Shown: positions 1 to 29,410, counted from the first letter of the stretch. The stretch is 64,000 nt of DNA from Actinomycetes bacterium (GCA_043746515.1 JAYTQV010000048.1:6676-70675), one strand, 5' to 3'. The notes: a model not told the origin generated them from the sequence alone. Program-made: numbers and translations.

Positions 1-2831
1 AAGCGAAATGTCTCTCCTGGATATTTACTTGTAAGCAGCGATTGAACCACTACATCATTCATGAGATTCGCGGCGAATCGTGCATTGAGCCCACCATTAT
101 TTCCTCCACACGCCCCGCACTCATACATGCTGCGAAAAGGCGTATTGGAGGCATCTGCGCCGTGACCGACAAAGATCACTTCCTTGGTGAGCATCGCACT
201 ATGTGCGGTGATAACCGCCAGAATATTTGTTGCGTACTGAAGTTTTTGGGAGTCGGATAAAAATGAAAGATCCATACCCGTTGAGTCAAGCCACCTGGTT
301 GGTTCAAAATATCTATTTAATTTCTTAGATAGTCCTGGTGCAAAGGTGTTGAGCGCGCTCAAGACTCCGTTCACAAGACCAAATCCTTCGGCTATTGCCA
401 GCGCGCCACTTCCGCGCGCGGCATATTTCCATAAGGAAGGAAAATCCCATAGAAAGCGAGACTTTCGATTATCCGTGACCTCTAACGAGGGCGTAAGAAT
501 TATTGGAGCATGTGTATCACGGACGGTGCCGCTCTTCTCCAGATGTGTAAGGCAGAGATCCACCCCAAAGAATCCTGCCATTCCCACAGTGCGGACTCCC
601 GGAATTTGTTCCGCTTGTACTCTAAGGAGATCACTGCGGACATCGATACAGGTCACAATCGAGACTTCATGCTGAAAATCATTCGCAGACGACGTGCTGC
701 TTTTGAGAATTCCTGCCCTTAAATTTTCGGCATAGCTTCTCTCCAAGGCCAATTGCCATACCTTGGCATGAGGAGTCGTTAGAGAATCGCTACGCTCCAA
801 CTCGCTATCGCTGAGAAGAAGTAGTGCCGCCCGTAGGGCTAAGAGCGAAGTTTGCGCTTTAATTCCTAAACCCTTGGCATATGTAAACCACGAGATATCA
901 ATAGAAATGAGCTGCTGTAGGCATCCAAGGATTTGTGAATCTGTAATCTCACCCTGATGCTTCTTGATCAAAAAAGGGAGGATTTGGCACAAAGCATCGA
1001 TCGGTTGAGGTTCCAGTAATTCTCGATATTTATGAGGCAAAGCCTTATGCCACATTTGGTAAGCACCAGAACTGTCTCCTGAATCTCCGTCATACCAACT
1101 TTGAGAACTCCACCAATTGGCGTTTGCCGCTAGAGATTCCTCTGGAGTTGGAAAAGGTGTATCACTCGGCTCGCGCTCTAAATCTTCTAAAACGTGATGC
1201 GCCTTTGCAATGCTAACCAAGGAATCAAACTCAAGGTTTAGATCAGATTCCCGTAAGCATTGAATAATAACTTCAGGGCGAATCAAACCCTGTTCCAGCC
1301 ACGAGAGATACTGCGAAGCGGATGCGTAGAGCGATATCCCGTAACCCCTCGCAATTTCTGCTGCTTCATGAAAATCCATATGGTGTAACCCAACTAGGGA
1401 ATCCTGCGCAACAATTTTAGACAGAGCCATACCTTCGACAAATGGAGCCGATGCAACCTCTACGACCTGGTGCATACTCTCTACCTGTAAATCACTGATC
1501 GATACTTGCTGAAGATTTCTCAGAGCCACGGATAATTTCTTTCGCGAAGGTAGGTACCTGTTCGCCCGTGACGCTATCCGTAGCGTCCACTCTCTAGGAG
1601 TAAATCGCAATGCGTTGGTTATGAAGAGAAGCAGAGCTGACACCAAAACAACTAGAGAAATACCCGGATGTGAAATTTTAGGGAAAAGTTGAGATACAAA
1701 CCATTCCAAGCAGATATAAATAAAGAAGAGGACGGCACTCAAGGAGGCGGATTGTACTAAGAGTCTCTTGGGCAATTTACTGATAAAGATTAACGAACTA
1801 GCGAGTGCGATTGCGAAGATGGATATATTGAGAAGATACTCACTGCCAAGGAAGGCTACAGAAATACCAATTGAAATTGGGTAGATAAAGGCAAGGATTG
1901 TAATCGCCGCGCGGTTCTCCTTGCCCACTGGCAAGGGCATTGCATTCTTCTTTCGAAGTGGTGCACCACCCGCTCGTAGAAAACTCCAGCTTTTGTAACT
2001 ACCGTGTCCGACGATATGAAGGAGAACTATTCCTGGTATCCCCAAGATACCTTCCAGCGCCATGAAGGCCATCTGCATACTTGTGCCGTTGGCAAGTTTT
2101 CCTTTTTCATCATGACGATGGCGCATGATCGAAAGGGAGATCGTAATCGTAAGCAAAGAAACAACGATTATGCCAACCCACGCGCGATGAACTATCGGCA
2201 GGACGATAATAAGGTACCCAAATCCATTGACAATGCCCGCATGCAAAAAAGCAGAGAGGGGGCTAGGCGCTTCGCTCGTAAGAATAAGCCAACGCATTGC
2301 TGGAAATGCTCCACTTCTTATCAGCCCCGAAATCGTAATCAAAATAGCTATTGCGTTGTACAGAGTTGACTTACCTTCTGCCGAACTGTTGATGGCTGCA
2401 AATAATTTTATGTGATGGAAATGAGCCAAAAATAGCGCACCCCAAAAGGCGCTATCTGAAATAAGAAACCAGGTTCCAATTTCAAGGACCGCCCGGCGCG
2501 ACCTGCGGTTGTTTGCGTGATTAACCAAGAATATGGCTCCTAGACCACTTGCGGACCAGCCCACCCCCATGAGAAGTGAATTGGAAGAAGAAAAGAGCAG
2601 GTAAATTCCAAGAGAAGTGACCAATAAAAGCCAGCCAAACCGTTGATACCTCAATTGACCAACGAGGTTCTTCATTGCGAAGGTGGTGATCGTGGCAATC
2701 AAAAGAGAGCTATAGATCAAAAGAGCTAGTCGCAGATGTAATTCTGGATCACCGTGAGTGGAAACCAGCGCATAAAGCGCCAAGAGGCTTACCAGCAGGG
2801 CAATAGATTGGTTGAGGCGGTAGGTAATCAT
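1..2831 (-). CDS. Fusion of a DabB-like NuoL/ND5-type proton-conducting membrane domain with DabA (DUF2309), an inorganic-carbon pump; the C-terminus lies beyond the left window edge
   Basis: Absent from the ORF track because there is no in-window stop. My hand translation from ATG 2831..2829 stays open to position 1 (over 940 codons). The first ~400 aa are polytopic with ND5-type motifs (SPLSAFLHAGIVNGFGYLII; LHIVGHGSYKSWSFL). I re-read the junction 1480-1740 codon by codon and found no stop. The DUF2309-type part follows, including VTCIDVRSD (~637-657) and GHGADASNTPFRSMYECGACGG (~101-160). Confidence 0.75.
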   Translation of the reverse strand, partial: MITYRLNQSIALLVSLLALYALVSTHGDPELHLRLALLIYSSLLIATITTFAMKNLVGQLRYQRFGWLLLVTSLGIYLLFSSSNSLLMGVGWSASGLGAIFLVNHANNRRSRRAVLEIGTWFLISDSAFWGALFLAHFHHIKLFAAINSSAEGKSTLYNAIAILITISGLIRSGAFPAMRWLILTSEAPSPLSAFLHAGIVNGFGYLIIVLPIVHRAWVGIIVVSLLTITISLSIMRHRHDEKGKLANGTSMQMAFMALEGILGIPGIVLLHIVGHGSYKSWSFLRAGGAPLRKKNAMPLPVGKENRAAITILAFIYPISIGISVAFLGSEYLLNISIFAIALASSLIFISKLPKRLLVQSASLSAVLFFIYICLEWFVSQLFPKISHPGISLVVLVSALLLFITNALRFTPREWTLRIASRANRYLPSRKKLSVALRNLQQVSISDLQVESMHQVVEVASAPFVEGMALSKIVAQDSLVGLHHMDFHEAAEIARGYGISLYASASQYLSWLEQGLIRPEVIIQCLRESDLNLEFDSLVSIAKAHHVLEDLEREPSDTPFPTPEESLAANANWWSSQSWYDGDSGDSSGAYQMWHKALPHKYRELLEPQPIDALCQILPFLIKKHQGEITDSQILGCLQQLISIDISWFTYAKGLGIKAQTSLLALRAALLLLSDSELERSDSLTTPHAKVWQLALERSYAENLRAGILKSSTSSANDFQHEVSIVTCIDVRSDLLRVQAEQIPGVRTVGMAGFFGVDLCLTHLEKSGTVRDTHAPIILTPSLEVTDNRKSRFLWDFPSLWKYAARGSGALAIAEGFGLVNGVLSALNTFAPGLSKKLNRYFEPTRWLDSTGMDLSFLSDSQKLQYATNILAVITAHSAMLTKEVIFVGHGADASNTPFRSMYECGACGGNNGGLNARFAANLMNDVVVQSLLTSKYPGETFR

Positions 2832-2860
2832 AGGTAAATTATTGCCTGTATTTAATTACC

Positions 2861-2889
2861 TGTCAAAAAATTCCATATAGCCGTATAAT
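2861..2889 (+). promoter_or_regulatory. Probable promoter giving a leaderless mRNA for the wHTH gene
   Basis: TGTCAA (2861-2866), a 17-nt spacer and TATAAT (2884-2889). The GTG start at 2896 lies 6 nt after the -10 and has no Shine-Dalgarno sequence. Leaderless transcripts are common in actinobacteria. Confidence 0.45.
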
Positions 2890-2895
2890 AAGGGT

Positions 2896-3177
2896 GTGGC
2901 TGGCGGAAAATGGACTCTTCTCTCCAACCACGGCCATGTATTGGTCGCCCTCAGTAAAGATCCAACTTTGCGAATTCGAGACTTGGTGGAGTTAGTTGGT
3001 ATTACCGAGAGGTCGGTCCGAGCCATCATCATGGATCTCCAGGTTGGCGGCTACTTAACAATAAGGAAGATTGGCCGACGCAATGAATATCGGATTAACG
3101 CTGAGATGAATTTTCGCCACCCGGCAGAGGCCACCTACCAAGTTAATGAATTACTAGATATTTTCAAAAGTTCCTAA
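2896..3177 (+). CDS. Small winged-helix (ArsR/MarR-like) transcriptional regulator
   Basis: 93 aa. LRIRDLVELVGITERSVRAIIMDLQVGGYLTIRKIGRRNEY reads as an HTH plus wing. It is divergent from the dab fusion and upstream of the rhodopsin. Confidence 0.6.
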   Translation: MAGGKWTLLSNHGHVLVALSKDPTLRIRDLVELVGITERSVRAIIMDLQVGGYLTIRKIGRRNEYRINAEMNFRHPAEATYQVNELLDIFKSS

Positions 3178-3380
3178 AAACTGGTAGTGCTTTTGCCAAC
3201 TACTTGGAGTTCATTGAGAGCGAGATGAATCTTCGCTGATTTCAAGTGGCAGGCATTACCAAGTGGGTGAATTATTCTCCTTGCCCGTAGCCCGACCCTT
3301 AAGGCTACGAGCCTTTACAAAGTAAGGGTTCGACCGGGCCCCTATAAGACCGGCACCAAATTAGCCCATGGAGGTCTAAG

Positions 3381-4157
3381 TTGCTACAACTATCAAATGG
3401 TCAGTGGAGCTCGTTATTTAACGTGTTCTCCTTTGGTCTAGTTTCGATGCTTGCCTGCACCATCTTTACATTGGTCTCACAAGCCCGGGTGCTACCAAAA
3501 TACCGCAGCGCCCTTGTAATGTCTTCAATGGTCACTTTCATTGCTGGATATCACTACTTCCGTATTTTCAACTCATTCAATGAGGCCTCAATGGCCAATG
3601 GAGTGAAAATAGGAACAGCTCAAGGTTCTTTCAACGAGGCTTACCGTTACGTTGACTGGATTTTGACTGTACCACTGCTTCTTGCAGAGGTTGTAGCTGT
3701 ACTTGGTCTTGCCAAGGCAGCATCTTCATCACTGATTGGTCGCCTTGTCCCTGCATCTGCAGCCATGATTATTCTCGGCTATCCAGGTGAAATCTCAACG
3801 CACAACGGAACTAAGGTTCTCTTCGGTATTCTCTCCACGATTCCATTTATCTACATCCTCTACGTTCTCTTCGTAGAACTCACAAAATCGTTGGATCGTC
3901 AACCAGAAGGCGTCGCGGCAACGGTTTCGCGTCTGCGTCTGCTCTTGGTCGCAACATGGGGCGTCTATCCAATTTCATATCTGCTTCCAATTTTGATTAA
4001 GAATCCATCGGCTTCTCAAGCAGCCGGCCTCTTCGTTGGTCGTCAACTTGGTTATACAATCGCAGACGTACTTGCGAAGTGCGTTTTCGGTCTGACCATC
4101 TACAAGATCGCAAAGATGAAATCTGCAGCAGAAGGCATGAAGGAAGAAGTTCATTAG
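3381..4157 (+). CDS. Actinorhodopsin (xanthorhodopsin/proteorhodopsin-type light-driven H+ pump)
   Basis: 258 aa with 7 TM segments. RYVDWILTVPLLLAEV gives the D/T/E motif (D92, T96, E103), with Leu at the tuning position (D+8), predicting green absorption. ADVLAK carries the Schiff-base Lys. TTG start with GGAGG 7 nt upstream. The retinal genes are adjacent. Confidence 0.9.
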   Translation: MLQLSNGQWSSLFNVFSFGLVSMLACTIFTLVSQARVLPKYRSALVMSSMVTFIAGYHYFRIFNSFNEASMANGVKIGTAQGSFNEAYRYVDWILTVPLLLAEVVAVLGLAKAASSSLIGRLVPASAAMIILGYPGEISTHNGTKVLFGILSTIPFIYILYVLFVELTKSLDRQPEGVAATVSRLRLLLVATWGVYPISYLLPILIKNPSASQAAGLFVGRQLGYTIADVLAKCVFGLTIYKIAKMKSAAEGMKEEVH

Positions 4158-4468: not shown

Positions 4469-4786
4469 TTATTTATTATTCTTGGTCCGTTCATTTTCAC
4501 GACGTCCTGTCCATACCCACATCGAGAGAACGCTTAAGATCAGGGAAAATCCGAAGAGCAAATCTTCAATCGGTGCACCGGCCAGCCGACGTCCGATAAT
4601 TGCAGCAGGGTTGTACATGACTATATTGCGATGAGTTAGCCAGTAGTTAGTAATTAATTGGAATGGAAAAATGATCGCATAGCTCGTCCAGAATATTGCC
4701 TTGGTGAGCAATTGGGTACGCGCGATGTAAAGATCAAAAACTAGGGCGAAGAGCACGCTAAAAAGTGCCATATCAGAGTAAATCAC
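4469..4786 (-). CDS. crtYd: Lycopene cyclase domain protein, second subunit of the heterodimeric lycopene beta-cyclase
   Basis: 105 aa, polytopic, with the PIEDLLF motif. It overlaps the upstream subunit by 4 nt. The c/d naming follows gene order only. Confidence 0.75.
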   Translation of the reverse strand: MIYSDMALFSVLFALVFDLYIARTQLLTKAIFWTSYAIIFPFQLITNYWLTHRNIVMYNPAAIIGRRLAGAPIEDLLFGFSLILSVLSMWVWTGRRENERTKNNK

Positions 4787-5133
4787 CGAACATTGCCCCC
4801 GATCTTTTCATCGCCCACCGGCCAGTGCTTCTTCACCGCACGCACTCCTTCAATGGTCATGATCGCGGCTATCGGGACAATGAGGAAAAATAAAAACTCT
4901 TCGAGAGGGATATGGCCGGGACCATAGATCCCAAGAATCTGTTTTCGGTCAAAAAACCAATGGTGCCGTCTAATAGCATATGCATCCCACAGCAAGAAGA
5001 AAAATGCAACAGGAGTGATACTCAGGGCCACCCGCTTAATGCGGACCAGGACGCGAACCTTCAAGACGATTTCCAACCAAAATGAACCTAGAACAGTGAA
5101 TGCTAGCATCGACATATAACTCCACTGCTTCAT
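4783..5133 (-). CDS. crtYc: Lycopene cyclase domain protein, first subunit of the heterodimeric lycopene beta-cyclase
   Basis: 116 aa, polytopic, with the PLEEFLFF motif typical of CrtYc/Yd-type cyclases. Confidence 0.75.
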   Translation of the reverse strand: MKQWSYMSMLAFTVLGSFWLEIVLKVRVLVRIKRVALSITPVAFFFLLWDAYAIRRHHWFFDRKQILGIYGPGHIPLEEFLFFLIVPIAAIMTIEGVRAVKKHWPVGDEKIGGNVR

Positions 5134-5159
5134 GGGATTAATCCTCCTACAATCACATC

Positions 5160-6065
5160 ATGAACGCGACCTTTGCATTAGTGCGCCGATTCTCAACGAT
5201 AGCCGTTTACGCCGCCATTGGGCTTGCGCTCATTTTTCGAGCCTCACTCGGTTCGGACCACATTGGATGGCAAATCGTGATGGCTCTCATCGCCTTGGCA
5301 ATCGGAATTCCACATGGGGCAGTTGATCACCTCATCACTATTCCACGTAGGTCCAAAGGAGCTTTTTATCGATTCATTGTGATTTACATATTAGTGGCGT
5401 TACTAGCGGCCTTCGCCATCCTGCGCTGGAACGTAGTTGGTTTTCAATTAGTGGTTTTGATGAGTGCGCTTCACTTTGGATTTGGTGATGCTGCTTTTCT
5501 CGCCGAATCGGGTGGGCAGAAGATGAATCGAGCGACAGAGGTTGCTTACTCACTCGCCGCTGGAAGTTTGCCAGTTGTTCTTCCCTTGGTTAACAGCAAA
5601 AGCACTTCAGCGCTGGAACATGTGCATCATCAACTCATCAATTGGCAACATGGCTTTACTCAAGGCTTGGAGATTTTGCTCTGGACTCTTGCCGCGATTG
5701 CATCACTACTACTTGTTACTCAACGTCGTTGGAGAGATCTCATCGATCTGATCGCCCTGGCACTCTTAGCGATTGTTGCTCCACCGCTCGTGGCCTTCGC
5801 GGTCTATTTTGGATGTTGGCACGCGGCACGACACACTGCACGACTGACTCTGTTACTGAAGCCAAGTTCCACCCCGCTATGGACAGCTTTCAAAGCTGGT
5901 CTTCCAGCACTTATTGGAACCGCGATTGTTGCAGCAGGACTAGCGATCTTAAGTAAAAATGGATTCTCATCATCGTTACTCTGGTCGCTGCTTGTTGTTA
6001 TTTGGGCGCTAACCGTTCCACACATGGCCACAACAGCTCGCTTTGATATCCAATCACTCAAGTAG
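5160..6065 (+). CDS. blh: Beta-carotene 15,15'-dioxygenase (Brp/Blh family, retinal synthase)
   Basis: 301 aa, polytopic. Conserved His sites are present: GIPHGAVDH, ALHFGFGD and CWHAARH. Confidence 0.85.
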   Translation: MNATFALVRRFSTIAVYAAIGLALIFRASLGSDHIGWQIVMALIALAIGIPHGAVDHLITIPRRSKGAFYRFIVIYILVALLAAFAILRWNVVGFQLVVLMSALHFGFGDAAFLAESGGQKMNRATEVAYSLAAGSLPVVLPLVNSKSTSALEHVHHQLINWQHGFTQGLEILLWTLAAIASLLLVTQRRWRDLIDLIALALLAIVAPPLVAFAVYFGCWHAARHTARLTLLLKPSSTPLWTAFKAGLPALIGTAIVAAGLAILSKNGFSSSLLWSLLVVIWALTVPHMATTARFDIQSLK

Positions 6066-6902: not shown

Positions 6903-9083
6903 TTATAAATATTTAAAGAGAGTCGAATAAATTACATCGGCGATGACCAGCAACGAGAGGTCATCTCCGCGAACTGCACTCAGTTGCAACGCGAATGGTA
7001 GGTTACCCTCTCCCCGCCCTATTGGAAGGCTGATTGCTGGATCCCCAGTCACATTAAAGGTGCCGGTAAATAGCGCCTCTGCCTCACCTTCTGGAGTATC
7101 TATAGGTGGAGTCGTGATAGGCGCATTAAATGGAGTACAGGGAGATAGCAACACATCGATTCCCTGATAAACCTTTGCTGCCTGCTCCAAGTTATCACTT
7201 CGTAACTTCATCGCTTCGCGATATTCAACTTCACTCACAATGGCACAGGCTTGGATCAAGCGCAGTGTAGGAGGACCATAATGCTCCGGGTGTAAACGGG
7301 CACGCTCTCCATGTACTTGGAATAGTTCGTACATGACAATCGGAGCGAATGTCCCATCAAGCAGATCTAGGGTCGAACCATCTACATCGACGACCGTATG
7401 ACCGGCGGCAACCAACGCCGCCACGGCTCGATCAATCGCTGCTTTAACTTCTGGCTCTAAAACACTGGAGTTATTTCTACTGGCAATTATTCCAAAAGTG
7501 AAATGTGCCGGTAGGTTAGGGGCTGCAGTATGAGTCAAAGCGGTGAAGACCTCAAGGATGGATGCGGGCGTATCCCCAATGAGTCCGACGTGATCCAAGG
7601 TTGGCGCCAGGGCCGTTACACCTAATAAATCAAAAGTATTGTATGTGGGCTTAAATCCTGCAACACCGCAATAATGTGCCGGAATGCGGATGGAGCCACC
7701 AGTATCGGTTCCAATAGCAACTTTGCAGACTCCCGCCCCCACCATTGCTGCTGACCCTCCACTAGATCCGCCAGCCGTAAAGAGTGGATTCGCTGAATTC
7801 ATGGCTTCGGGAACATCTGGATGGAGCGCACCCGCCGCATATTCAAGAAGGGTCGTAGTGGCAAAAATATCTGCCCCTAAAGTACGCAAATCTCGCACAA
7901 TAGGTGAATCACTTATTGCGACAACTCCAGCCATATCGACGGGGTTCCCATTTCCGCGAGGCGTTCCCGCAATATCTACAATATCTTTCACTGCTACCGC
8001 ATGACCAAGTAAGGGTCCATCCATATTTCGCAGCGGTGAAGAAAGTAGTTCAACGTAAGCGTGCAGTGGTCCTCCGAGTCGAATAGCTCGCTCGTAAGTT
8101 GCGAGTAAATCTAAATTTGCAACTTGGCAGAGCCTCTCCCCGCGTTCGATTGATTCGATCATTTCAATCACAAGGTTGATGAGAGGACCGCTGAGAGCCT
8201 CTCTTAACATGGAAACTTCAGTCTTGCGCTTACGAATAGCAAGATCACGATAAACGCCAGAATGGGTCTTTGCACTATTCCTGTTGAGTTCAACAAGTTG
8301 ATCAATCGAACTTTCTAAATCATCAGGATCAAATCCGTCAAAGGGCTCGAGTTTCACCGGTGCTTGGGCGATCACTTCTCGAGCTAAAGCGAGCATTAGC
8401 TCCCGGTATTCCAATCGCCCTAAGGATTCTACGATCGGCAAGTCAGAGACCGCCCCTGCAAAGAGCATTGCGCCGTAGACCTCTTTACTCCACAAAAACC
8501 CGAGAATATTTTCAGTCGCTTGCGCATAGGGAATTACTTCCGCGAGAAACTCCGCACGCGTTGAGAGCACACCACTTATCTCACCAATACGAACTGCCGC
8601 TTTGTTGCCCTGTACAATCAGTCCAGGACGAATATAATCTGCGCCAAAATTGATCAAGGCGGGGAGAACTCGATCCACACCAAATTTTTCTATAAGTTGT
8701 TCATTTACCAACCCATTTTGCAAAGTAACTATGTATCCACTTGGACTCAAATGTGAAGAGATTTGTTCAATCGCATTAACCGAATGGTGCCCTTTTACCG
8801 CAAGGAAAATAATGTCGAATTCTCCGGAGAGTTCTTCTGGCGAAAAGGCATTTGCGCTCAGAGTCCGCTGTTCTCCCTGGTATTCAATGGTGAGACCCTG
8901 CTCGTTGATAGCATCCCTATGCTCTTGATCGATCTCAGAAAAAACAAGGTCGTGGCCGAGTCCAATAAGGTGGGAACCAACTACTCCACCTATGGACCCG
9001 GCCCCAATTACCAATAATTTAATTGCTGGCCTCACCGTAATTAAATGTGGTGACGCAACCACCGTCAACAGTAACAATGGCAC
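6903..9083 (-). CDS. Fusion protein: N-terminal ketopantoate-reductase-like (ApbA/PanE family) domain and C-terminal amidase-signature domain
   Basis: N-terminal LLVIGAGSIGG Rossmann motif and an ApbA_C-like part (SAKTHSGVYRDLAIRKRKTE). C-terminal AVKD, GGSSGGSAA and GTDTGGSIRIPA. The true start is probably GTG 9035 or nearby, because the listed ATG overlaps the upstream SDR by 65 nt. Confidence 0.8.
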   Translation of the reverse strand: MPLLLLTVVASPHLITVRPAIKLLVIGAGSIGGVVGSHLIGLGHDLVFSEIDQEHRDAINEQGLTIEYQGEQRTLSANAFSPEELSGEFDIIFLAVKGHHSVNAIEQISSHLSPSGYIVTLQNGLVNEQLIEKFGVDRVLPALINFGADYIRPGLIVQGNKAAVRIGEISGVLSTRAEFLAEVIPYAQATENILGFLWSKEVYGAMLFAGAVSDLPIVESLGRLEYRELMLALAREVIAQAPVKLEPFDGFDPDDLESSIDQLVELNRNSAKTHSGVYRDLAIRKRKTEVSMLREALSGPLINLVIEMIESIERGERLCQVANLDLLATYERAIRLGGPLHAYVELLSSPLRNMDGPLLGHAVAVKDIVDIAGTPRGNGNPVDMAGVVAISDSPIVRDLRTLGADIFATTTLLEYAAGALHPDVPEAMNSANPLFTAGGSSGGSAAMVGAGVCKVAIGTDTGGSIRIPAHYCGVAGFKPTYNTFDLLGVTALAPTLDHVGLIGDTPASILEVFTALTHTAAPNLPAHFTFGIIASRNNSSVLEPEVKAAIDRAVAALVAAGHTVVDVDGSTLDLLDGTFAPIVMYELFQVHGERARLHPEHYGPPTLRLIQACAIVSEVEYREAMKLRSDNLEQAAKVYQGIDVLLSPCTPFNAPITTPPIDTPEGEAEALFTGTFNVTGDPAISLPIGRGEGNLPFALQLSAVRGDDLSLLVIADVIYSTLFKYL

Positions 9084-9826: not shown

Positions 9827-10657
9827 TTAGTTCCATTCCATAATGGTGCGAGTGAGCATGACGGTGGTGATAAAGCGCTTGAAAAGGCTGAGTGGATCTG
9901 AATCAGTGATGGTTACTTCCTTGGAATTTAGCTTTACCGCGCCAGGTACCCATGTTGCAATCTCAGTGAAGTCACTATTGTGAAAGCGCATTTTGATAGT
10001 GGCTGGTAGCGCTATCTTTGGAGTTGAAATCGAGTCAAGATGTTTGATTGCATACTCAGCTTTTTCTGCAATGAGTGCACAGGCATCCGTTGGATGCATG
10101 CTGTCGGCAGCAAAACGAGTGATGCTTGTCTTTACCACGGCTGCCTGCACATCTGGTGACCAGACCTCGGTCTCTGTCTTTGTAATGTTATCTCCAGTAA
10201 CCAAGGCAATAGGTACCTGGTAATACTGCGCAACTAGCGCGTTGAGCCCAGCCTCAGAGACAAATTCATCATTGAGCCAGATATCTGAAATCGCGCGCGG
10301 ATTATAAGTATGTGAGAGGACGGATGAATCACTACTCATTGATCCATGGTAGGAGACAAAAAAGATTGCATCATAAGAACTGTCGAGACCTTGCATCATA
10401 TACATCGGCTTATATTTACCCGAAAGGTAACGAGCTTTACCGGCCAGTGTTGCAGGTCGCAGATTTTGCATTGATGAGTGAGAGTCATTTACTAAGAACT
10501 CAGTAGCTCCTGCTGCCATGGCGCCATCGATGCTGGCATTTGTCTCATTTTGAAGCAACCCGCGGTAGTACTCATACTCCGGCTTGCCTGGAATACATTG
10601 ATCCCAATCGACAACTCCAGCCGTGCCTTCCATATCCGTGCTAATAAAAATTTTCAT
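9827..10657 (-). CDS. M55 family metallopeptidase (DppA-type D-aminopeptidase)
   Basis: N-terminus MKIFISTDMEGTAGV is characteristic of peptidase M55. Confidence 0.8.
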   Translation of the reverse strand: MKIFISTDMEGTAGVVDWDQCIPGKPEYEYYRGLLQNETNASIDGAMAAGATEFLVNDSHSSMQNLRPATLAGKARYLSGKYKPMYMMQGLDSSYDAIFFVSYHGSMSSDSSVLSHTYNPRAISDIWLNDEFVSEAGLNALVAQYYQVPIALVTGDNITKTETEVWSPDVQAAVVKTSITRFAADSMHPTDACALIAEKAEYAIKHLDSISTPKIALPATIKMRFHNSDFTEIATWVPGAVKLNSKEVTITDSDPLSLFKRFITTVMLTRTIMEWN

Positions 10658-11607
10658 AATAAAACCTTTCGTGGTAAGAATTCAGGTTGGGTCGAGTTTT
10701 CGCCCATATATGTATATGTCGAACCTTCCATACCAGAGGCTCCGCCGTGACTACCATCCGCCGAGATTGCAAGGCAGCGAAGTTCGGCTCGAAAATCATC
10801 AGGCAAGGCGCGTGCCTCTTTGAGGGCTTCATAGCAAGCGAGCTCTGGTGAGGCTCCGTACCGCATGTTTTCAACGACTGTACGGGCCGTGCCGCTGCGT
10901 AGGGCTAGTTCGCCTCTACCGGTACATGCAGCTGCACCATAGCGAATATCGGCATAGTTACCTGCGCCAGCCACAGCAGAATCCCCGACACGACCTGGAT
11001 GCTTGTAAGGGTATCCACTCGTGCTTACTCCACAGACGATCTCACCAAACTTATCCATCGCGATGATATTGATCGTGCCCCATGGTCCATCATGCGGCGC
11101 CATGCGCCGAACAAGTTCAAGAGAGGCGAGACGATACCGCTCATCACCAGTGGTAGCCGCCGTGTTTTCACCTTCGATAGATTCCTCAGAAGCACTTTCA
11201 AGTTGCTTCTCCCAAAGTGCTTTTGACTCTGGGGTGAGCAAATCGGCTTTCGCAAATCCTAGAAATTCTGCAAACTCTTCGGCCCCAGCTCCAACCAATA
11301 ATGAATGTTGTGGCAATTTTTCAATTACAGCACGAGCTATCGAGATTGGATTTGGATAATTTTTGACTGCAGCCACTGCTCCAAATGCTCGTGATGAACC
11401 AATCATTAATGAAGCGTCGAGCTCAACGATTCCACGTGCATTTGGTAGGCCACTGGTACCAATGTAATGATCGGCAAGATTGTCTTCGCATAAAATCAGT
11501 CCACGTTCTACCGCATCAAGTGCGCTGCCTCCCCGTCGCAATATCTCCATCGCCGCAGGGATTCCCGCCTCACTTCTTTCGCTACCGATAATCAGAATTT
11601 CCGACAT
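10654..11607 (-). CDS. Isoaspartyl peptidase/L-asparaginase (Ntn hydrolase, asparaginase_2 family)
   Basis: Autoprocessing/nucleophile region HDGPWGTINIIAMD, GVSTSGYPYKHPGRVGDS and CTGRGE. Confidence 0.8.
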   Translation of the reverse strand: MSEILIIGSERSEAGIPAAMEILRRGGSALDAVERGLILCEDNLADHYIGTSGLPNARGIVELDASLMIGSSRAFGAVAAVKNYPNPISIARAVIEKLPQHSLLVGAGAEEFAEFLGFAKADLLTPESKALWEKQLESASEESIEGENTAATTGDERYRLASLELVRRMAPHDGPWGTINIIAMDKFGEIVCGVSTSGYPYKHPGRVGDSAVAGAGNYADIRYGAAACTGRGELALRSGTARTVVENMRYGASPELACYEALKEARALPDDFRAELRCLAISADGSHGGASGMEGSTYTYMGENSTQPEFLPRKVLL

Positions 11608-11641
11608 GTACCTCTCCTAGATTATTTTGATTTGTTTTTCT

Positions 11642-12655
11642 CTATTGCAAAACTTTAATGCAGGCGACCTCGTGTTGAATCTCTGGTGAGGAATTTGCCG
11701 CATTAGTACCGATTTTAAGCAGTTGTGGATCGGTACTTGCGCACTTCGAATCTGCAATTGAACAACGACTCATGAAGCGGCAACCGTCGTAATGACTTTG
11801 AAGTGTAGGCAACTCTCCGCTGCCCAGGTTTGCAACCTGAGAGTTAGCATGCATTTTCGGTACTGATCCAAGTAACAATTTTGTATATGGATGTCGCGGT
11901 TCAGTGAAAACTTGCTCGGTCGAACCAATCTCAACAATACGTCCTAAGTACATAACGGCAATGCGGTCACACATCTGACGCACTACGGAGATATTGTGGC
12001 TAATAAAGAGGATCGATAGCCCTAAGTCGCGCCTTAAATCAAGAAGTAAGTTCACGATCGTGGCCTGAACCGATACATCAAGTGCAGATACTGCTTCATC
12101 TGCAATAAGTATCTTTGGTTCCAATGCAAGCGCCCTTGCAATCCCTATTCTCTGTCGCTGGCCACCAGAAAATTGCCGTGGGTGAGAGTCAAGTGTTGCG
12201 AGAGGCAAACCAACGACTTTCATCAACTCTTCGCAACGAGCATCCACATTCTCTTTAGTGCGCAATTTATGAAATATGAGAATTTCCGAAAGCATCCTAC
12301 GAATCGTCATCTGTGGGTTCAGAGATGAGAATGGATCCTGGAAAATCATCTGCGCAATGCGGCGTTGCTCCAGCGTTCGCTGATCAGTTACGGCCTGCCC
12401 ATTGAGGTAGATAGTTCCAGACGTTGCGCCATAAAGCCCCACGAGAGTTCTGCCTAGGGTTGATTTACCACAACCAGATTCACCGACTAGTCCCAGCGTC
12501 TCGCCTTGATAAAGATCAATTGTTACACCATCAACCGCGGGGATTGTCAGAGGGGCTTCTTTGCGGATCTTTTTAGCAACGCTTTGACGACCAACAAAGT
12601 GTTTCGATAAATCCTTAGAATTTAGGGCTATCTGACGACCCTCTTGAACACTCAT
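11642..12655 (-). CDS. Peptide ABC transporter ATP-binding protein (DppF/OppF-like)
   Basis: Walker A GESGCGKST, signature FSGGQRQR, Walker B ILIADE, and a C-terminal oligopeptide-type extension. Confidence 0.9.
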   Translation of the reverse strand: MSVQEGRQIALNSKDLSKHFVGRQSVAKKIRKEAPLTIPAVDGVTIDLYQGETLGLVGESGCGKSTLGRTLVGLYGATSGTIYLNGQAVTDQRTLEQRRIAQMIFQDPFSSLNPQMTIRRMLSEILIFHKLRTKENVDARCEELMKVVGLPLATLDSHPRQFSGGQRQRIGIARALALEPKILIADEAVSALDVSVQATIVNLLLDLRRDLGLSILFISHNISVVRQMCDRIAVMYLGRIVEIGSTEQVFTEPRHPYTKLLLGSVPKMHANSQVANLGSGELPTLQSHYDGCRFMSRCSIADSKCASTDPQLLKIGTNAANSSPEIQHEVACIKVLQ

Positions 12656-13656
12656 GTACCTGCTCCTTTAATTCCAGTTAGTCCAGCTTTAAAAGAACCA
12701 ATGCGCAGACAAGCAGCCTCGCCATTTCCAGCCCGAGAAAGGTTGGGTTCAGTGGTCTGGCATTCAGAAGTAGCCGCAAAACAGCGAGGCGCGAAAGGGC
12801 ATCCTGCAACCGGTTTGGTTAGATCGGGAGCTTCACCGGCAATCGAGAAGAGTCGCTCAACCGGAATATCAGGGTCTGGTACCGATTTGAGGAGCGAGAA
12901 GGTATATGGGTGCTGAGGATCAGCATAAGTCTCTTGGACGCTACCTTTTTCTACAATGCGTCCCCCATACATAACTTGTAGGGATTCACATACTTCGTTG
13001 ATGACAGCCAGATCGTGGGTGACAAAGATCAGACCCATCTGCTCTCGCCTACGCAGGTCAATTAATAGGCGAAGAACTTGAGCTTGAATTGTCACATCCA
13101 AGGCCGTTGTTGGTTCATCACAAAAAAGCATCTTTGGCTCGCCGGCAAGTGCAAGAGCAATGGCTACTCGCTGCCTTAAACCACCAGATAACTGGTGCGG
13201 ATAACTCTTAAGTCGTTTCTCCGCCTCCGGTATGCCCACAAGATTCATTAACTCCAAGGCTTTGGCCTTGGCTTTATCTTTGGAGTAACCCAATCGATAC
13301 CGAGGGACTTCCATGATTTGATCTCCGACAGACAAGACTGGATTGAGAGCTGAGATTGCGTCTTGGAAGACGATGCCGAATTTTTTGGCGAGCACAGTTC
13401 TACGCTTCGATGCTGGCAATGAGAGAACGTTAACACCGTCGACAATAATTTCTCCGCGCGTAATAGTGGCATTGTTTGGGAGGAGATCGAGAATCGCTTT
13501 AAGCGTAATAGATTTTCCAGAACCTGATTCACCGACAATGCCCAACGCTTCACCAGCAGTTACTTCAAAGGAGACACCGCGGATAGCCTTTAACAGCCCT
13601 CGGGATGTGTGGATGTCTACGTGTAAATCATCTACTACCAATAATGGATTACTCAT
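12652..13656 (-). CDS. Peptide ABC transporter ATP-binding protein (DppD/OppD-like)
   Basis: [16 protein letters not shown] and [11 protein letters not shown]. Its C-terminus has the Cys motif CPFAPRC. Confidence 0.9.
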
Positions 13657-25857: not shown

Positions 25858-27392
25858 GATCCAGTACTCGTAATCGAGAAGTTGCTGGACGGATTTAGTC
25901 CAGATTTATCGTCAATAACAATTACATGTTGAATGACCCTGCCACTTGGAGTTGTAAAGGAAATTTTCAGATGACGGCCAGTGACTGCAGGTCCGACTAA
26001 AACTGGAAAGGCACAGGAGCCACCCCCAGTCATGCAGGTGAACTTCGCACCGTTTGACACCACCCCTCCGTCAATTTCATGTTGATCTCTCTGGCCTTCG
26101 TCAACTCTTACATTCGATCCCGAAGCTAATACCGTTCCGTAGATAAATGTCTTTGCAGTTGCCGTTGCGTACGCGTAAAAAAGAGGAGTATTACCAGTAT
26201 GAACTGCTGGACAATTTGAACTATTTCCTCGTTTAACGGCACACACTATTGCGTGACTACTGTCGGCAGAGATGATGGCAAAACTCTGTCCTATTGCTTG
26301 ACGAGGTCCACAAATTCTAAAATCTCCATCACGGTTTGAAAGAGTTGCCGAGTCACCAAATACCAACTGGGTTCCAGATACCTCCGTACTTGTTTGCGGA
26401 TCAGCAGGCGTAACACCGTGATTGTAAGAACACCCTGTGGCTAATCCTGAAATGTCATACTTAACATTTGCATCAGAAGGATCATTGTGAACCAGAATGC
26501 TCTCTGAAAGATCGTTTGTGTCCCGCCTTACATCAAGAACTTTCGTCCCTTTAAAGTAAAGCACGCCTCGCCCTAACTCGATATCGATCCCGTGAGACCA
26601 ACTTTCAGAATCAGAGCAATCTCTATCAGTGTATGTACCATTTGATTTATAGGTGCGGATTCTCTCTTGTGAGAATAGAACATTTAATTGGTCAATCGCC
26701 TCATCATTGTAATTTCCACTTGGGATCAAGATTGGAGTATTGAGTGCGGAACAACTCTTGGGCAGATAAGAATTTATTGACCCCGTATTTCCGGTCCCTG
26801 GATCAAAGACAGGTAAAACCGGGATGACAGAGCTTGTTGGAAGATTAGACGCATTTGTTGAAATAACTCCCGCAGAAGCTGAAACTCCAGATATAGCTCC
26901 TCCTGAAGGAGTAAGAATTTGAGTTGCAGTAACGCTTCCGGAAGTCACGCTGACGTTATCGCTTTGCGATTCAATAGAACTATTAAATGCATAAGACCCG
27001 ATAATAGAAACCCCATTATCCACGCCGGTGGAGGTTCCGTTTGGAGAAGTAGTCGTCACCGATGAGGTGGCTAAAGGTTGATTACTGCCGGTAACAGGTA
27101 CACAAGAAACAGTTACACCAGAAACAACTGTTGGAAGTCCACAATTTGGTTGGGTAATGGAGTCAAACGCGGCTGAACCGAGAGTCGGATTAATAGTCAA
27201 TTGCTCCAGGACTGTTGAAGTAGCAACAGCCACTTGGCTCGCACTCATTGTTTGTGCTGCGAGTCGCTGACCTCCTGACCCTGATGCCTGCGTGAGCAAG
27301 AGTGAAACTCCGAGCCAACCACCGAGAATCGTTACGAAGATTAAAACAACAGCTAGAACAGAACCAACCTCAGAATCTCGACCGTTCATCAT
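25854..27392 (-). CDS. Large pilus-operon protein with a TadG/TadE-like N-terminal anchor; the rest is unassigned
   Basis: I moved the start to ATGATG 27392, which has AAGGAG upstream and an ATGA overlap with the preceding stop. N-terminus MMNGRDSEVGSVLAVVLIFVTILGGWLG. The ~480 aa that follow are Ser/Thr/Gly/Cys-rich with no motif I recognise. Confidence 0.6.
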   Translation of the reverse strand: MMNGRDSEVGSVLAVVLIFVTILGGWLGVSLLLTQASGSGGQRLAAQTMSASQVAVATSTVLEQLTINPTLGSAAFDSITQPNCGLPTVVSGVTVSCVPVTGSNQPLATSSVTTTSPNGTSTGVDNGVSIIGSYAFNSSIESQSDNVSVTSGSVTATQILTPSGGAISGVSASAGVISTNASNLPTSSVIPVLPVFDPGTGNTGSINSYLPKSCSALNTPILIPSGNYNDEAIDQLNVLFSQERIRTYKSNGTYTDRDCSDSESWSHGIDIELGRGVLYFKGTKVLDVRRDTNDLSESILVHNDPSDANVKYDISGLATGCSYNHGVTPADPQTSTEVSGTQLVFGDSATLSNRDGDFRICGPRQAIGQSFAIISADSSHAIVCAVKRGNSSNCPAVHTGNTPLFYAYATATAKTFIYGTVLASGSNVRVDEGQRDQHEIDGGVVSNGAKFTCMTGGGSCAFPVLVGPAVTGRHLKISFTTPSGRVIQHVIVIDDKSGLNPSSNFSITSTGS

Positions 27393-28474
27393 GAGATGCT
27401 CCTTGCGGCCAATATGACTTGCGTAGGATATTGGTTGGCACTGGAACCGATCGTTGCAGGAACGGTAAATGTAAGTCCAGGATTTGTCGCAGCAACATTG
27501 AGAAATGTATTCGTTGGGCAAGTTCCACTTGAAACCACTGAAGCAACAAAGGTTGCACATTTGAGTGCCGTTGACCAGTCCACGTTTGAATTTGATAGAG
27601 CAAGATTGTTCCGCAACATTTGTGAAGTAGCGCTGGTAATTGCGATCTGTGGAGCCGCACATTGGATTCTCCACAACTGACCATACGAACTACCAACTGA
27701 GCGCACCTCATAGCCCACGAATTTGTTATAGACAAGGATTCCGGGGCTGGTAGTAACACCTGTCCCAAAATTATTTAATGTGAAAGTTTTATTTCCTGGG
27801 TTGGTAGCAATAACTATGGCACCAATAGAGTTATAAGTCGTCGGAACCATTCCTGAAACAGTAATGCTCTGTCCAGGTGCAAAGGCAATCTGACCTGAAT
27901 ACGTATAGGTTGCAATCACACCTGTTCCGATCGCGGAGGTGATCGTTGCTCCCGATTGCTGACTAAAAGTGACTATCGGGCGTACAAATGAATAAGTCGA
28001 ATCGCTGGGAAGCCAGGTACTACATTGAGTAAGAAAGCTCCCCACTCCACTAGCAATTCCAGTGGTGGAATTGAGAATTGTAAATGTGGTTGCCGATGGA
28101 ACGGAGGTAATCGTTGCATTTGAAACATCATATCCACTCGGTACTAAGCCTGAAATAGAAATATTTTGACCCACAGTTAGTGTGTTAGTCCCGGAGTGTG
28201 TGTAGGTAACGGTTACTCCATCACCGGAAACACCTGTGATCGAACTAGCTCCCGCGGCTGTCGGTATGATAAAACCATTGGATTGCTCTACATCTTTAGT
28301 GAATGTGGCATCCAATATAGACACTCCTGAACTGACAAGTGATGTACTTTGACTGTGGCTAATGGACGCCACGCTGGCATCAAAAGTTTTTGCTATTCCC
28401 AATGTCAGAATGGATGAAAGAAAAACTGTTAAAATTACCTCGAGAAGAGTGACTCCCTGATCGGAAGTATTCAA
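27389..28474 (-). CDS. Long pseudopilin with a prepilin-type N-terminus and two copies of a ~60-aa repeat
   Basis: MNTSDQG|VTLLEVILTVFL. TTG start directly after the upstream TAA. The internal repeats are described in the findings. Confidence 0.65.
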   Translation of the reverse strand: MNTSDQGVTLLEVILTVFLSSILTLGIAKTFDASVASISHSQSTSLVSSGVSILDATFTKDVEQSNGFIIPTAAGASSITGVSGDGVTVTYTHSGTNTLTVGQNISISGLVPSGYDVSNATITSVPSATTFTILNSTTGIASGVGSFLTQCSTWLPSDSTYSFVRPIVTFSQQSGATITSAIGTGVIATYTYSGQIAFAPGQSITVSGMVPTTYNSIGAIVIATNPGNKTFTLNNFGTGVTTSPGILVYNKFVGYEVRSVGSSYGQLWRIQCAAPQIAITSATSQMLRNNLALSNSNVDWSTALKCATFVASVVSSGTCPTNTFLNVAATNPGLTFTVPATIGSSANQYPTQVILAARSIS

Positions 28475-29410
28475 TTAGATCGCCGCCACTATGGTTCTTG
28501 ACAATTGTTTTCCATGTACTGTCGTACTCACTGTAATTTGCTGAATACTCACGCACTTGGTCAGACCAACAAAACCGCCTGATGCAAAAGTACCGGTAGC
28601 AGAGTTGGCCACCACAAATTGGGTACTCGTAGCACTGACAACCGTCGCAGAGGCTAGATTAAAGACTGAGGGGCTAACGCCAGAAATAGATACGTTGTCT
28701 CCCACCGCAAAAGGAGTTGGCGACACATAAGTGTAGGTAATAGCAGAGCCATTGGCAGATATTCCCGTGATATTTGCCTTAGGAACACTCTGACAAGGAG
28801 TCCAATTGATTGAAGAATTGTTCACTTGCACCAAAACTGAAACGATTGTAAGCGGAAGATTTTTGGAGACGGAAACGCCTTGACTAGTAACTGTGAACTT
28901 ATAAATCGCAGAACTTTCGGCTATCGGGGTTCCGGAAATAACACCATTCGCAGAGAGTGAGAGCCCGGTAGGTAAAACAGGAGAGACACCCCATGTGTAG
29001 GTTGACAGACCATTCACAGCCGAAAGAGCCGTTGAGTAAGGGTGAAAGATTCCTCCAGATGGAGACTGCGCAATCGGCAGTGCCGAAGTGGAAATTGCAA
29101 GGGATCCTGAGGTTACGGACGGTGGCGCAATAGCCGCGGTTGATAGCTGGTATGGCTCAGGATTTACAGGTGAGCAAGGTTGAAAAATCTGTAGTTGAAT
29201 TTGTTGCGAAGCCGAGTTCAAGTTAGCCATCGCGGTGCCCGTGAGATTAACCCTGTCCGAGAGAGGTTGAGATAGTGCAATCGTTCCTACAATTGTCAAC
29301 CCGAGCAAGCCCATGATCACGGCTGAAACGATTACTTCTACCAAAGATTCACCACGGTCGTAACGGCGTTTTTTATAGTTATATTTTTCGAAATTTTCTC
29401 TCATACTCAT
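28475..29410 (-). CDS. Long pseudopilin with a prepilin-type N-terminus, an Ig-like (He_PIG-type) segment and one copy of the ~60-aa repeat
   Basis: RG|ESLVEVIVSAVIMGLLG (E at +5). The segment YTWGVSPVLPTGLSLSANGVISGTPIAE resembles the putative-Ig-domain pattern. Confidence 0.65.
   Translation of the reverse strand: MSMRENFEKYNYKKRRYDRGESLVEVIVSAVIMGLLGLTIVGTIALSQPLSDRVNLTGTAMANLNSASQQIQLQIFQPCSPVNPEPYQLSTAAIAPPSVTSGSLAISTSALPIAQSPSGGIFHPYSTALSAVNGLSTYTWGVSPVLPTGLSLSANGVISGTPIAESSAIYKFTVTSQGVSVSKNLPLTIVSVLVQVNNSSINWTPCQSVPKANITGISANGSAITYTYVSPTPFAVGDNVSISGVSPSVFNLASATVVSATSTQFVVANSATGTFASGGFVGLTKCVSIQQITVSTTVHGKQLSRTIVAAI

Follow-up and report, generated by a model that had tools for sequence, protein, structure and literature searches.

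Among the closest described systems, DAB2 of Halothiobacillus neapolitanus (DabA2/DabB2; PDB 9rd0) is built from two polypeptides (Desmarais et al., 2018; Desmarais et al., 2019; Lo et al., 2026, preprint). Mutagenesis of DAB2 indicates that, in DabA2, C351, D353, R355, H524, C539, and E444 all matter, the role of the finger glutamate E444 having been described in bioRxiv 10.64898/2026.03.13.711513, and that the K235A replacement in DabB2 merely lowers DAB2 activity. A natural DabB-DabA fusion is known from the actinobacterium Acidimicrobium ferrooxidans (bioRxiv 10.1101/476713; PMC6689103; bioRxiv 10.64898/2026.03.13.711513), whose single-subunit DAB/Mps has been cited as the model for an engineered DabB2-DabA2 fusion; the latter, with the same domain order as the gene reported here, rescues CA-free E. 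coli. In Staphylococcus aureus, the DabB/DabA homologue pair MpsAB supplies DIC to a heterotroph, where it replaces carbonic anhydrase, and is down-regulated at 5% CO2. The cyanobacterial NDH-1 modules (CupA/CupB, NdhF3/NdhD3) embody the same concept, in that a complex-I-type antiporter-like subunit gives direction to the reaction of a CA-like subunit; however, Cup proteins are unrelated to DabA, and these modules are powered by electron transfer within a large complex, whereas DAB is stand-alone and PMF-driven.

The window analysed here is a stretch of 64,000 nucleotides from an Actinomycetes bacterium (GCA_043746515.1 JAYTQV010000048.1:6676-70675). Positions 1-4157 hold not one gene but three (Table 1): dabBA, a small winged-helix (wHTH) regulator gene, and a rhodopsin gene. 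The minus-strand open frame of dabBA (3..2855) comprises 951 codons, with an ATG start at 2831 ('MITYRLNQ'), and was missing from the ORF list because it runs off the start of the window. Its product within the window is 100% identical to a protein of 1180 amino acids at full length (P0001), encoded on a 235,837-bp contig, and the complete gene was seen at 10001-13543 of locus L001. The in-frame DabB-DabA fusion described in the first-pass annotation was thus borne out by the full protein, in which a NuoL/DabB-like membrane domain of about 412 residues is joined to a complete DabA (PF10070) domain. Chance could not plausibly yield a frame of this length in which two domains are strongly matched. 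The A and B parts, separate genes in S. aureus, are here covalently linked, and the AF2 prediction for the fused protein is a single compact model (pLDDT 83, pTM 0.86) in which the linker connects the final TM helix with the N-terminal domain of DabA. Based on its sequence, dabBA is a real and intact gene for a one-protein DAB, a predicted CO2-to-bicarbonate pump.

Table 1. Positions of dabBA, its parts, and the adjoining features in the window.
Feature	Coordinates	Strand	Basis or remark
dabBA, single-chain DAB gene	3..2831	-	codons 1-943 of 1180; 3' end beyond window start
DabA (PF10070) domain, aa 466-943 within window	3..1436	-	PF10070, 9rd0_A matches
H890...C905(/C908), second half of predicted Zn site	108..164	-	alignment, residue survey, translation
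Amphipathic 'finger' helix-loop-helix, aa 793-839	315..455	-	alignment, AF2, residue survey
CIDVRS: predicted Zn ligand C728, Asp730-Arg732 dyad, S733	633..650	-	alignment to 9rd0_A
Junction: basic/amphipathic cytoplasmic linker, aa 413-465	1437..1595	-	AF2 secondary structure, translation
DabB-like membrane domain, putatively proton-conducting, aa 1-412	1596..2831	-	NF006029, 9rd0_B, AF2, Foldseek
Shared divergent promoter/operator (predicted)	2832..2895	.	promoter scan, conservation
ArsR/SmtB-like minimal winged-helix regulator, 93 aa	2896..3177	+	weak Pfam HTH_24/PaaX matches
Xanthorhodopsin/actinorhodopsin-type proton-pumping rhodopsin, 258 aa	3381..4157	+	PF01036 E=1e-40

The portion of DabA encoded in the window consists of the helical N-terminal domain and the beginning of the beta-CA-like core. 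PF10070 (DUF2309; gathering cutoff 25 bits) matched residues 467-935 of this portion with 171 bits (E=7e-50) and the full protein with 361 bits (E=1.5e-107; profile positions 11-747 of 747), and the domain also matched H. neapolitanus DabA2 (PDB 9rd0_A; E=4e-49), although identity in the CA core is only about 30-35%. The beta-carbonic-anhydrase-like zinc site that had been read from TCIDVRSD and an H-x14-C pair is present in both halves: C728, D730, R732, and S733 align residue for residue with C351, D353, R355, and S356 of DabA2, and GHGADASNTPFRSMYECGACGG aligns with H524/C539 as H890/C905. The CIDVRS motif is invariant across 98 loci, and C728, H890, C905, D730, and R732 are invariant both in these loci and in the family alignment. 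In the finger, E815 (387-389; AIAEGFGL) aligns with E444 of DabA2 and is kept in 20 of 20 fused loci. Indeed, all positions of DabA2 found to matter by mutagenesis are conserved in the window protein and in all 19-20 fused loci. Along with the Cys2-His site, the Asp-Arg dyad, S356, and Glu444, L658 and W656 are also conserved, whereas the tunnel-gate residue R653 of DabA2 is replaced by Phe.

The membrane domain (~14 predicted TM helices in the AF2 model) is homologous to DabB/NuoL, as established by searches outside Pfam. The best model for residues 32-418 was that of the DabB-type NuoL paralogues (NF006029; E=2.6e-32), followed by matches to H. neapolitanus DabB2 (PDB 9rd0_B; E=4.6e-17) and mycobacterial NuoL (E=1e-11), and Foldseek returned NuoL/ND5 matches at a probability of 1.0. 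NF006029, which has a curated cutoff of 380 bits, scored 112 bits here, however, as compared to 463-512 bits for NuoL paralogues that are linked to dab genes in Alcanivorax and Alteromonas. Of the two profiles proposed for a check of the fusion, PF10070 was recovered as described above but PF00361 (Proton_antipo_M) was not, with no match to the window part or the full protein even at E<=0.1, an outcome named in the first-pass annotation as counting against the fusion. The low NF006029 score and the lack of a PF00361 match therefore indicate a highly diverged membrane domain. It is also about 140 residues shorter than DabB2 (412 versus 551 residues), falls below PF00361 detection, and appears to lack one of the 15 helices described for DabB2. 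The NuoL-type proton pathway is marked by a Lys in TM7, a His in TM8, and a His/His/Lys set in TM11. The residue survey identified E187, H197, K243, H272, H276, and K280 as conserved, among which H272/H276/K280 and H197 are NuoL-type channel residues, the His/His/Lys set being common to DAB2; D126 is kept, and the E144-equivalent Glu is absent, as it is in DabB2. The TM7 lysine (K235 in DabB2) is replaced by R172 (2316-2318).

The regulator gene is transcribed divergently from dabBA, and both genes are near-leaderless. The predicted dabBA promoter (TTGACA-17-AATAAT; 2866..2838, minus strand) faces a predicted wHTH promoter (CTGTCA-18-TATAAT; 2860..2889, plus strand), and the former has its -35 and -10 boxes overlapped by a pair of direct ACAGGYAAT repeats (2841-2863). 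This 56-bp promoter/operator is near-identical in at least 11 lineages, with the same layout in a Mycolicibacterium locus (L067), and the paired motif occurs once in the window, at the dab promoter. Upstream of dab genes and divergent from them, the regulator gene was found in 17 GTDB-species loci from several phyla and, L084 excepted, in every close fused locus whose upstream sequence was long enough to show it. Conservation of mpsC does not extend beyond staphylococci, and the conserved companions of dabBA are instead the wHTH gene and DUF6671. Like the metal-sensing ArsR/SmtB repressors, the regulator is a small protein, encoded divergently and probably subject to autoregulation, and its winged-helix core aligns to SmtB and CadC. 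These matches are weak, at E about 1e-4 (profile against PDB: SmtB, 1.6e-4; AspA, 4e-4), and the protein lacks a recognised ArsR/SmtB metal-site motif but has invariant N-H-x-H and R-H-P signatures of its own (invariant residues W6, N11, H12, R28, G35-T37-E38-R39, and R74-H75) together with direct-repeat operators. Conservation suggests that the regulator binds the pair of ACAGGTAAT repeats that lie across the -35 and -10 boxes and thereby probably represses dabBA, which would be transcribed from a leaderless promoter, in response to some signal.

As a whole, these observations are very probably best explained by a functional single-polypeptide DAB, DabBA, with the architecture and regulation described above and the following mechanism. 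The N-terminal NuoL-like module would let cations, in all likelihood protons, flow down their gradient across the membrane, and the short basic cytoplasmic linker would tether it covalently to the DabA module, which is predicted to hold a buried zinc site and the Asp-Arg dyad. The finger hairpin may insert beside the membrane module such that E815 completes the outer half-channel. Ion flow would be coupled to one-way hydration of passively entering CO2, and bicarbonate would therefore build up in the cytoplasm. In this rhodopsin-bearing and apparently heterotrophic actinobacterium, which, in contrast to H. neapolitanus, offers no carboxysome context, the bicarbonate could feed housekeeping carboxylases, much as MpsAB replaces carbonic anhydrase in S. 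aureus.

Both the activity of DabBA and the ion that it uses are predictions, and three other explanations bear on them or on the locus. Na+ could be the ion, as claimed for MpsAB, or, instead of hydrating CO2 at the expense of a proton gradient, the protein could translocate cations in connection with the membrane potential, the role first put forward for the staphylococcal system. MpsAB can make up for Na+-transport defects and owes its name to the generation of membrane potential, and the Lys to Arg change in TM7 of the window protein might point the same way. However, Arg also occupies this position in 19 of 71 separate, ordinary DabB proteins, DAB2 is Na+-independent and a proposed proton conductor, and the window protein retains the His/His/Lys and finger-Glu residues of the pathway, while its complete zinc site favours the chemistry of CO2 hydration. 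This explanation is considered unlikely. It is far less probable again, to the point of being nearly negligible, that the single frame arose from an assembly error or a spurious frameshift, or that it is a pseudogene in decay made up of two once-separate genes. It is true that the window is one assembly only and that dabB-dabA pairs in other phyla are mostly separate genes, often overlapping or abutting. Yet the fusion was recovered as uninterrupted frames of 1156-1196 amino acids in more than 30 independent clusters at 50-73% identity (ENA, JGI, NCBI, and Logan assemblies) and in 20 fetched loci, the junction is uninterrupted in all fused homologues, and the model shows the linker as helical and running without a break into both flanking domains. 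Moreover, dabBA is under purifying selection (dN/dS ~0.13 against P0002; 0.08-0.21 per domain), which speaks against decay.

The remaining explanation concerns the neighbouring rhodopsin, which matched PDB 9hfk (E=1.6e-80) and xanthorhodopsin (3ddl; E=5e-70) from residue 4 onward. It has the PF01036 fold, a DTE motif in helix C (RYVDWILTVPLLLAE; D-x3-T-x6-E), and a Schiff-base Lys in helix G (ADVLAK; D-x3-K), starts with TTG behind a GGAGG Shine-Dalgarno sequence, and is followed by retinal-synthesis genes (two lycopene-cyclase (crtY) halves and blh; 4469-6065). The arrangement noted in the first-pass annotation, with dabBA divergent from the wHTH gene next to a proton-pumping rhodopsin, is therefore correct, and it was taken there to suggest an axis from light through PMF and bicarbonate uptake to anaplerotic fixation. 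As a dedicated module, rhodopsin and DabBA would be co-regulated (through a shared wHTH/divergent promoter or wHTH-to-rhodopsin read-through), and light-generated PMF would specifically drive bicarbonate accumulation for anaplerotic fixation by PEP carboxylase. The gap between the regulator and rhodopsin genes is only 203 bp and contains no consensus terminator that could be found, a sister lineage (L082/L083) retains the gene order, the P0017 lineage has blh and lycopene cyclase at a distance of 5.5-7 kb from dabBA, and DAB activity requires a cation gradient. However, the adjacency is limited to the window contig (L001) and that sister lineage (P0003), which, with SecA 95% identical, is too close to provide independent evidence, so that conservation across independent lineages, as a rhodopsin-DAB module would show, is not seen. 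The rhodopsin cassette is absent beside the same fused gene in the P0008, P0015, P0076, P0022, P0017, and P0033 lineages and at loci L084-L090, L092, and L097-L101, these including at least six other fused-gene lineages (L084, L085, L097-L101) and metagenome loci (L087-L089, L092), and no rhodopsin was found within 10 kb in any of 80 GTDB-species dab loci. Two of these loci (L099/L100) share the outer neighbours of the window locus (Opp ABC, asparaginase, and peptidase M55) but not the cassette. Of the at least six lineages that have the fused gene without the adjacent rhodopsin, most carry the same wHTH regulator, which also accompanies dab genes without rhodopsin in Planctomycetota, Bdellovibrionales, and Mycobacteriaceae, so its sequence context assigns it to the DAB locus and not to rhodopsin. 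In the window, the operator pair is absent upstream of rhodopsin and of PEP carboxylase, a housekeeping gene 46 kb from dabBA (48797-51568), and the region upstream of rhodopsin is conserved in its own right. Because the adjacency is peculiar to one lineage, a light-powered carbon-uptake unit is not supported; it is regarded as improbable, slightly more so than the use of Na+, and light-to-bicarbonate coupling is speculative. By genomic comparison, rhodopsin is a lineage-specific neighbour rather than part of the conserved DAB unit, and would add to the general proton-motive force as for any PMF consumer, with no evidence of a dedicated DAB link.

The fusion itself is already known and not new. 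The first-pass annotation had implied that it is unusual, but in addition to the A. ferrooxidans precedent described in the literature, 79 of the best 150 cluster representatives at 50% identity are of fused-protein length. The window protein belongs to a compact fused clade (1056-1196 amino acids). Longer fused proteins (P0044-P0051, L003, L012, and L047; 1263-1388 amino acids) are only 26-34% identical to it, and a PF00361 match was detected in those P00xx members of this longer group that were checked.

The span 1-4157 of the window holds three genes: a dabBA frame encoding a single-chain DabB-DabA protein (DabBA) of the DAB inorganic-carbon (Ci) pumps, a divergent gene for a small winged-helix regulator (wHTH), and a rhodopsin gene. 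The dabBA frame is absent from the mechanical ORF list because it runs off the start of the window, which has a GC content of ~47%. Public assemblies contain the identical protein at its full length of 1180 aa (P0001, from a 235,837-bp contig; gene at L001 10001-13543), and the window therefore encodes DabBA residues 1-943.

Features of the dabBA locus and correspondences between DabBA and DabA2 of Halothiobacillus neapolitanus (window positions unless marked L001, the window's own contig as fetched)
Feature	Position	Strand	Remarks
dabBA open frame	2855 to 3	-	951 codons, continuing past window start
dabBA start codon	ATG at 2831	-	MITYRLNQ...
wHTH gene	2896-3177	+	93 aa
Rhodopsin gene	3381-4157	+	258 aa
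Two lycopene-cyclase halves	4469-5133	-
blh	5160-6065
DUF6671 gene	L001 13569-14390		after dabBA, just past window start
DabBA C728/D730/R732/S733	633-650		DabA2 C351/D353/R355/S356
DabBA E815	387-389		DabA2 finger Glu444
DabBA H890 and C905	108-164		DabA2 H524 and C539
DabBA W1013 and L1015			DabA2 W656 and L658

The in-frame joining of DabB to DabA that was proposed in the first-pass annotation is real. Uninterrupted products of 1156-1196 aa occur in more than 30 clusters at 50-73% identity that derive from independent ENA, JGI, NCBI, and Logan assemblies, and the gene is a single frame in all 20 of the close or intermediate loci that were fetched. Moreover, comparison with a 74%-identical gene (P0002) gave a dN/dS of 0.13 overall; by part, the membrane domain had 0.08, the linker and N-terminal domain 0.21, and the carbonic anhydrase (CA) core 0.13. 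The fusion is not new: a natural fused gene in Acidimicrobium ferrooxidans is mentioned in three papers (Desmarais et al., bioRxiv 10.1101/476713; Fan et al., PMC6689103; Lo et al., bioRxiv 10.64898/2026.03.13.711513), the last of which also reports full activity in CA-free E. coli for an engineered DabB2-DabA2 protein with the same domain order. The window protein is a divergent addition to these known fused DABs. Of the 150 best matches in a HMMER search that exhaustively covered 1.84 billion representatives clustered at 50% identity, 79 were long enough (at least 1050 aa) to be fused proteins. A profile search of genome contigs with the family alignment listed 80 GTDB-species dab loci, all distant (at most 34% identity among the matches listed), three of which are fused (an Actinomycetota MAG, Humibacillus sp. 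DSM 29435, and a Nanopelagicales MAG); the remainder carry separate genes, dabB first and then dabA. A metagenome scan for dab loci yielded 8. Stop-codon read-through in separate dabB/dabA pairs was considered and rejected, as a single in-frame stop (~14 loci) was no commoner than the 1-in-3 chance expectation.

The DabA part of the protein matches PF10070 with E=7e-50 for the portion in the window and 1.5e-107 for the full protein, with the entire profile covered; its match to the cryo-EM entry for DAB2 of H. neapolitanus (PDB 9rd0, chain A) has E=4e-49. PF00361 gave no Pfam match to the membrane part (aa 1-412) even at E<=0.1; the best NCBIfam model for this part is NF006029 (E=2.6e-32), which is also the top model for dab-linked NuoL paralogues of Alcanivorax, Alteromonas, Xanthomonas, and Mycolicibacterium (204-512 bits). 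Direct matches of the membrane part include DabB2 (9rd0_B; E=4.6e-17) and mycobacterial NuoL (1e-11). The window protein falls in a divergent sub-clade of compact proteins (1056-1196 aa) in which the membrane domain has drifted out of reach of the Pfam model. An AlphaFold2 model built from 30 family members was confident (pLDDT 83.4, pTM 0.86) and comprises ~14 TM helices, a linker of two short basic helices (413-442), a helical DabA N-terminal domain, and an alpha/beta core. Foldseek matched the model to NuoL/ND5 chains in the PDB at probability 1.0; the 50 matches listed were NuoL/ND5/Mrp chains only, and 9rd0, found by PDB sequence search, was not among them.

Residue correspondences were read from the HMMER alignment to 9rd0. 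The zinc site named in the first-pass annotation is borne out by published work (bioRxiv 10.1101/476713; bioRxiv 10.64898/2026.03.13.711513, a 2026 structure paper), and the functional residues are essentially invariant in a survey of 101 loci. The membrane domain keeps the His/His/Lys of 'LLHIVGHGSYK' along with H197, E187, and K243; as in DabB2, there is no Glu at the NuoL E144 position. The TM7 Lys (K235 of DabB2) is replaced by Arg172 in DabBA, but this substitution was rejected as a hallmark of fusion since 19 of 71 separate DabB proteins also have Arg there and it is therefore not peculiar to fused proteins.

In the reading with the strongest support, DabBA is probably a single-chain vectorial CO2 hydratase that would be driven by the proton motive force (PMF), would supply bicarbonate to the cell, and would be regulated by its own small wHTH. 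If active, it would represent a compact, one-gene PMF-driven CO2 hydratase in abundant rhodopsin-bearing freshwater actinobacteria, with implications for the bicarbonate supply of streamlined heterotrophs and for anaplerotic CO2 fixation in lakes, whether dark or light-stimulated. Additionally, for engineering cells that accumulate bicarbonate, the compact fused clade (~1180 aa, with a minimal DabB domain) could offer a convenient one-gene part.

The wHTH belongs to the DAB locus. In 17 of the 80 listed GTDB-species loci, a homologue with 38-57% identity is encoded upstream of dabB in divergent orientation, in hosts that include Planctomycetota, Bdellovibrionales/Oligoflexales, Acidobacteria, Mycobacteriaceae, Pseudonocardia, Nocardiopsis, Promicromonospora, Humibacillus, and Nanopelagicales, and the gene is present at all close fused loci with sufficient upstream sequence except one (L084). 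Invariant residues of the family are W6, N11, H12, R28, G35, T37, E38, R39, R74, and H75, and its profile weakly resembles SmtB, CadC, and AspA (E about 1e-4). The intergenic region between dabBA and the wHTH gene (64 bp in the window, 2832-2895; 56 bp in relatives) was compared among the window, L082, L087-L101, and Mycolicibacterium hodleri (L067 9700-9740). It is near-identical (...TTTGACAGGTAATTwAATACAGGTAATAATTyncCTATG) where DabBA shares just 51-73% identity. A promoter scan placed two sigma-70-like promoters back to back in this region, their -35 boxes overlapping, and each start codon lies 6-8 nt past its -10 box, such that both predicted mRNAs would have little or no leader. The dabBA promoter is overlaid at its -35 and -10 by two direct ACAGGYAAT repeats (ACAGGTAAT) spaced 14 bp; within the 64-kb window, the pair occurs at this site only. 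A similar layout precedes the ATG in M. hodleri (ACATGTAAT-N5-ACAGGTAAT), where dabB and dabA are not fused, and variants of it were found at other loci. These features suggest that the wHTH and the repeats act as a dedicated repressor and operator of dab expression. A Ci-related signal for the wHTH is plausible by analogy, because 5% CO2 represses mpsA in S. aureus (PMC6689103). In a lineage at 35% identity (P0033; L085/L086 4700-7609), a zinc-uptake cluster (ZnuA, ABC ATPase, ABC-3 permease, and Fur-family regulator) lies directly past the wHTH gene, a position worth noting given the likeness of the wHTH to SmtB-type metal sensors and the fact that DabA is a zinc enzyme.

A further companion of dabBA encodes a 273-aa DUF6671 protein with four C-terminal CxxC pairs. 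DUF6671 occurs alongside dab genes in ~20 of the 80 listed distant loci, in several phyla (loci with the gene include L002, L009, L011, L034, L044, L054, L067, and L071), and is positioned 3' of dabA or, at some loci, in a divergent wHTH-DUF6671 operon. Searches of the PDB and NCBIfam returned no relatives, and no literature on DUF6671 was found.

The rhodopsin is a proton pump of the xanthorhodopsin/actinorhodopsin type, with top matches to PDB 9hfk (1.6e-80), xanthorhodopsin (3ddl), and Gloeobacter rhodopsin, and with a readable DTE motif and Schiff-base Lys. Every fetched locus was searched by tblastn with the window's rhodopsin, Blh, and cyclase proteins. Among these loci, the adjacency of rhodopsin and dabBA was found only in the window's contig and in a sister lineage (P0003; L082/L083). 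SecA of the sister lineage is 95% identical to that of the window, and the adjacency there thus reflects shared ancestry and is not independent evidence. In the P0008 lineage (60% identity), downstream synteny is kept (MFS, ABC, GreA, DUF4307, and SURF1), and DUF305, UDG, and Ppx lie past the wHTH gene in place of the rhodopsin cassette. The P0076 and P0015 lineages share the outer neighbours of the window's contig (Opp ABC, asparaginase, and peptidase M55) and have CorA and a hydrolase at the expected position of the cassette. The cassette is absent by tblastn from the P0022, P0033, L087-L089, and L092 loci. The P0017 lineage encodes blh and cyclase 5.5-7 kb from dabBA on its other side, with no rhodopsin detected by tblastn within 8 kb downstream of dabBA, and no rhodopsin was found within 10 kb at any of the 80 listed distant dab loci. 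These comparisons mark the adjacency as a rearrangement specific to this lineage and not a conserved module. Divergence between the window and the P0003 lineage (L082) is uneven: SecA is 95% identical, rhodopsin 96%, the cyclases 90-91%, the wHTH 84%, Blh 76%, DabBA 64-65%, and DUF6671 63%. The evolution of DabBA and DUF6671 is thus far more rapid than that of the genes around them, yet under purifying selection. In the P0015 lineage (L100 13851-16885), a 364-aa RuBisCO-large-family protein, to judge by length and context probably a RuBisCO-like protein of form IV, is encoded convergently just 3' of dabBA, alongside split transketolase genes.

The first-pass annotation had suggested an axis leading from light through PMF and bicarbonate uptake to PEP carboxylase (PEPC). 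The PEPC is genuine (NF000584, 843 bits), but it lies 46 kb from dabBA amid housekeeping genes (SecA, Mfd, enolase, and MtrB, the last marking the source as an actinomycete), and the operator motif was not found upstream of the rhodopsin or PEPC genes; together with the lineage-specific adjacency, these observations speak against the axis. No literature linking DabA/DUF2309 to rhodopsin was found. A dedicated light-to-bicarbonate unit finds no support in comparative genomics and is improbable, while rhodopsin can add to the PMF that would drive DabBA as it can for any PMF consumer. Another reading would have the rhodopsin/retinal cassette recruited beside the DAB regulator gene in this freshwater actinobacterial lineage and expressed from or with the wHTH transcript, such that PMF generation and CO2-to-bicarbonate pumping are co-switched as a minimal light-driven Ci unit in a heterotroph. 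Between the wHTH and rhodopsin genes, no consensus-like terminator was found, only a weak imperfect hairpin (3283-3312), and read-through from the wHTH gene may therefore occur; nevertheless, such co-switching is unlikely. A likelier reading than any light-driven unit is that the wHTH, its ACAGGTAAT operator, and DUF6671 constitute an undescribed, phylum-spanning regulatory and accessory set for DAB pumps. The most useful leads are the DAB-linked wHTH with its invariant operator and DUF6671, both of which are candidates for a part in regulating DAB pumps or in their maturation across many phyla.

Of the spacer between the wHTH and rhodopsin genes (3178-3380), the 3' two-thirds is strongly conserved between the window and L082, including GGCCCCTATAAGACCGGC, as is the GGAGG Shine-Dalgarno sequence before the TTG start of rhodopsin. 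Elsewhere in the window, a 726-aa protein (6903-9083, minus strand) that is kept in the sister lineage (L082) joins an N-terminal ApbA/ketopantoate-reductase-like domain to an amidase domain. Further, four same-strand ORFs (27389-32350, minus strand) are headed by a 540-aa ORF (30728-32350) that matches models of GspE/PilB-type secretion/pilus ATPases, with a best NCBIfam E of 3.7e-130 that is under the curated cutoff.
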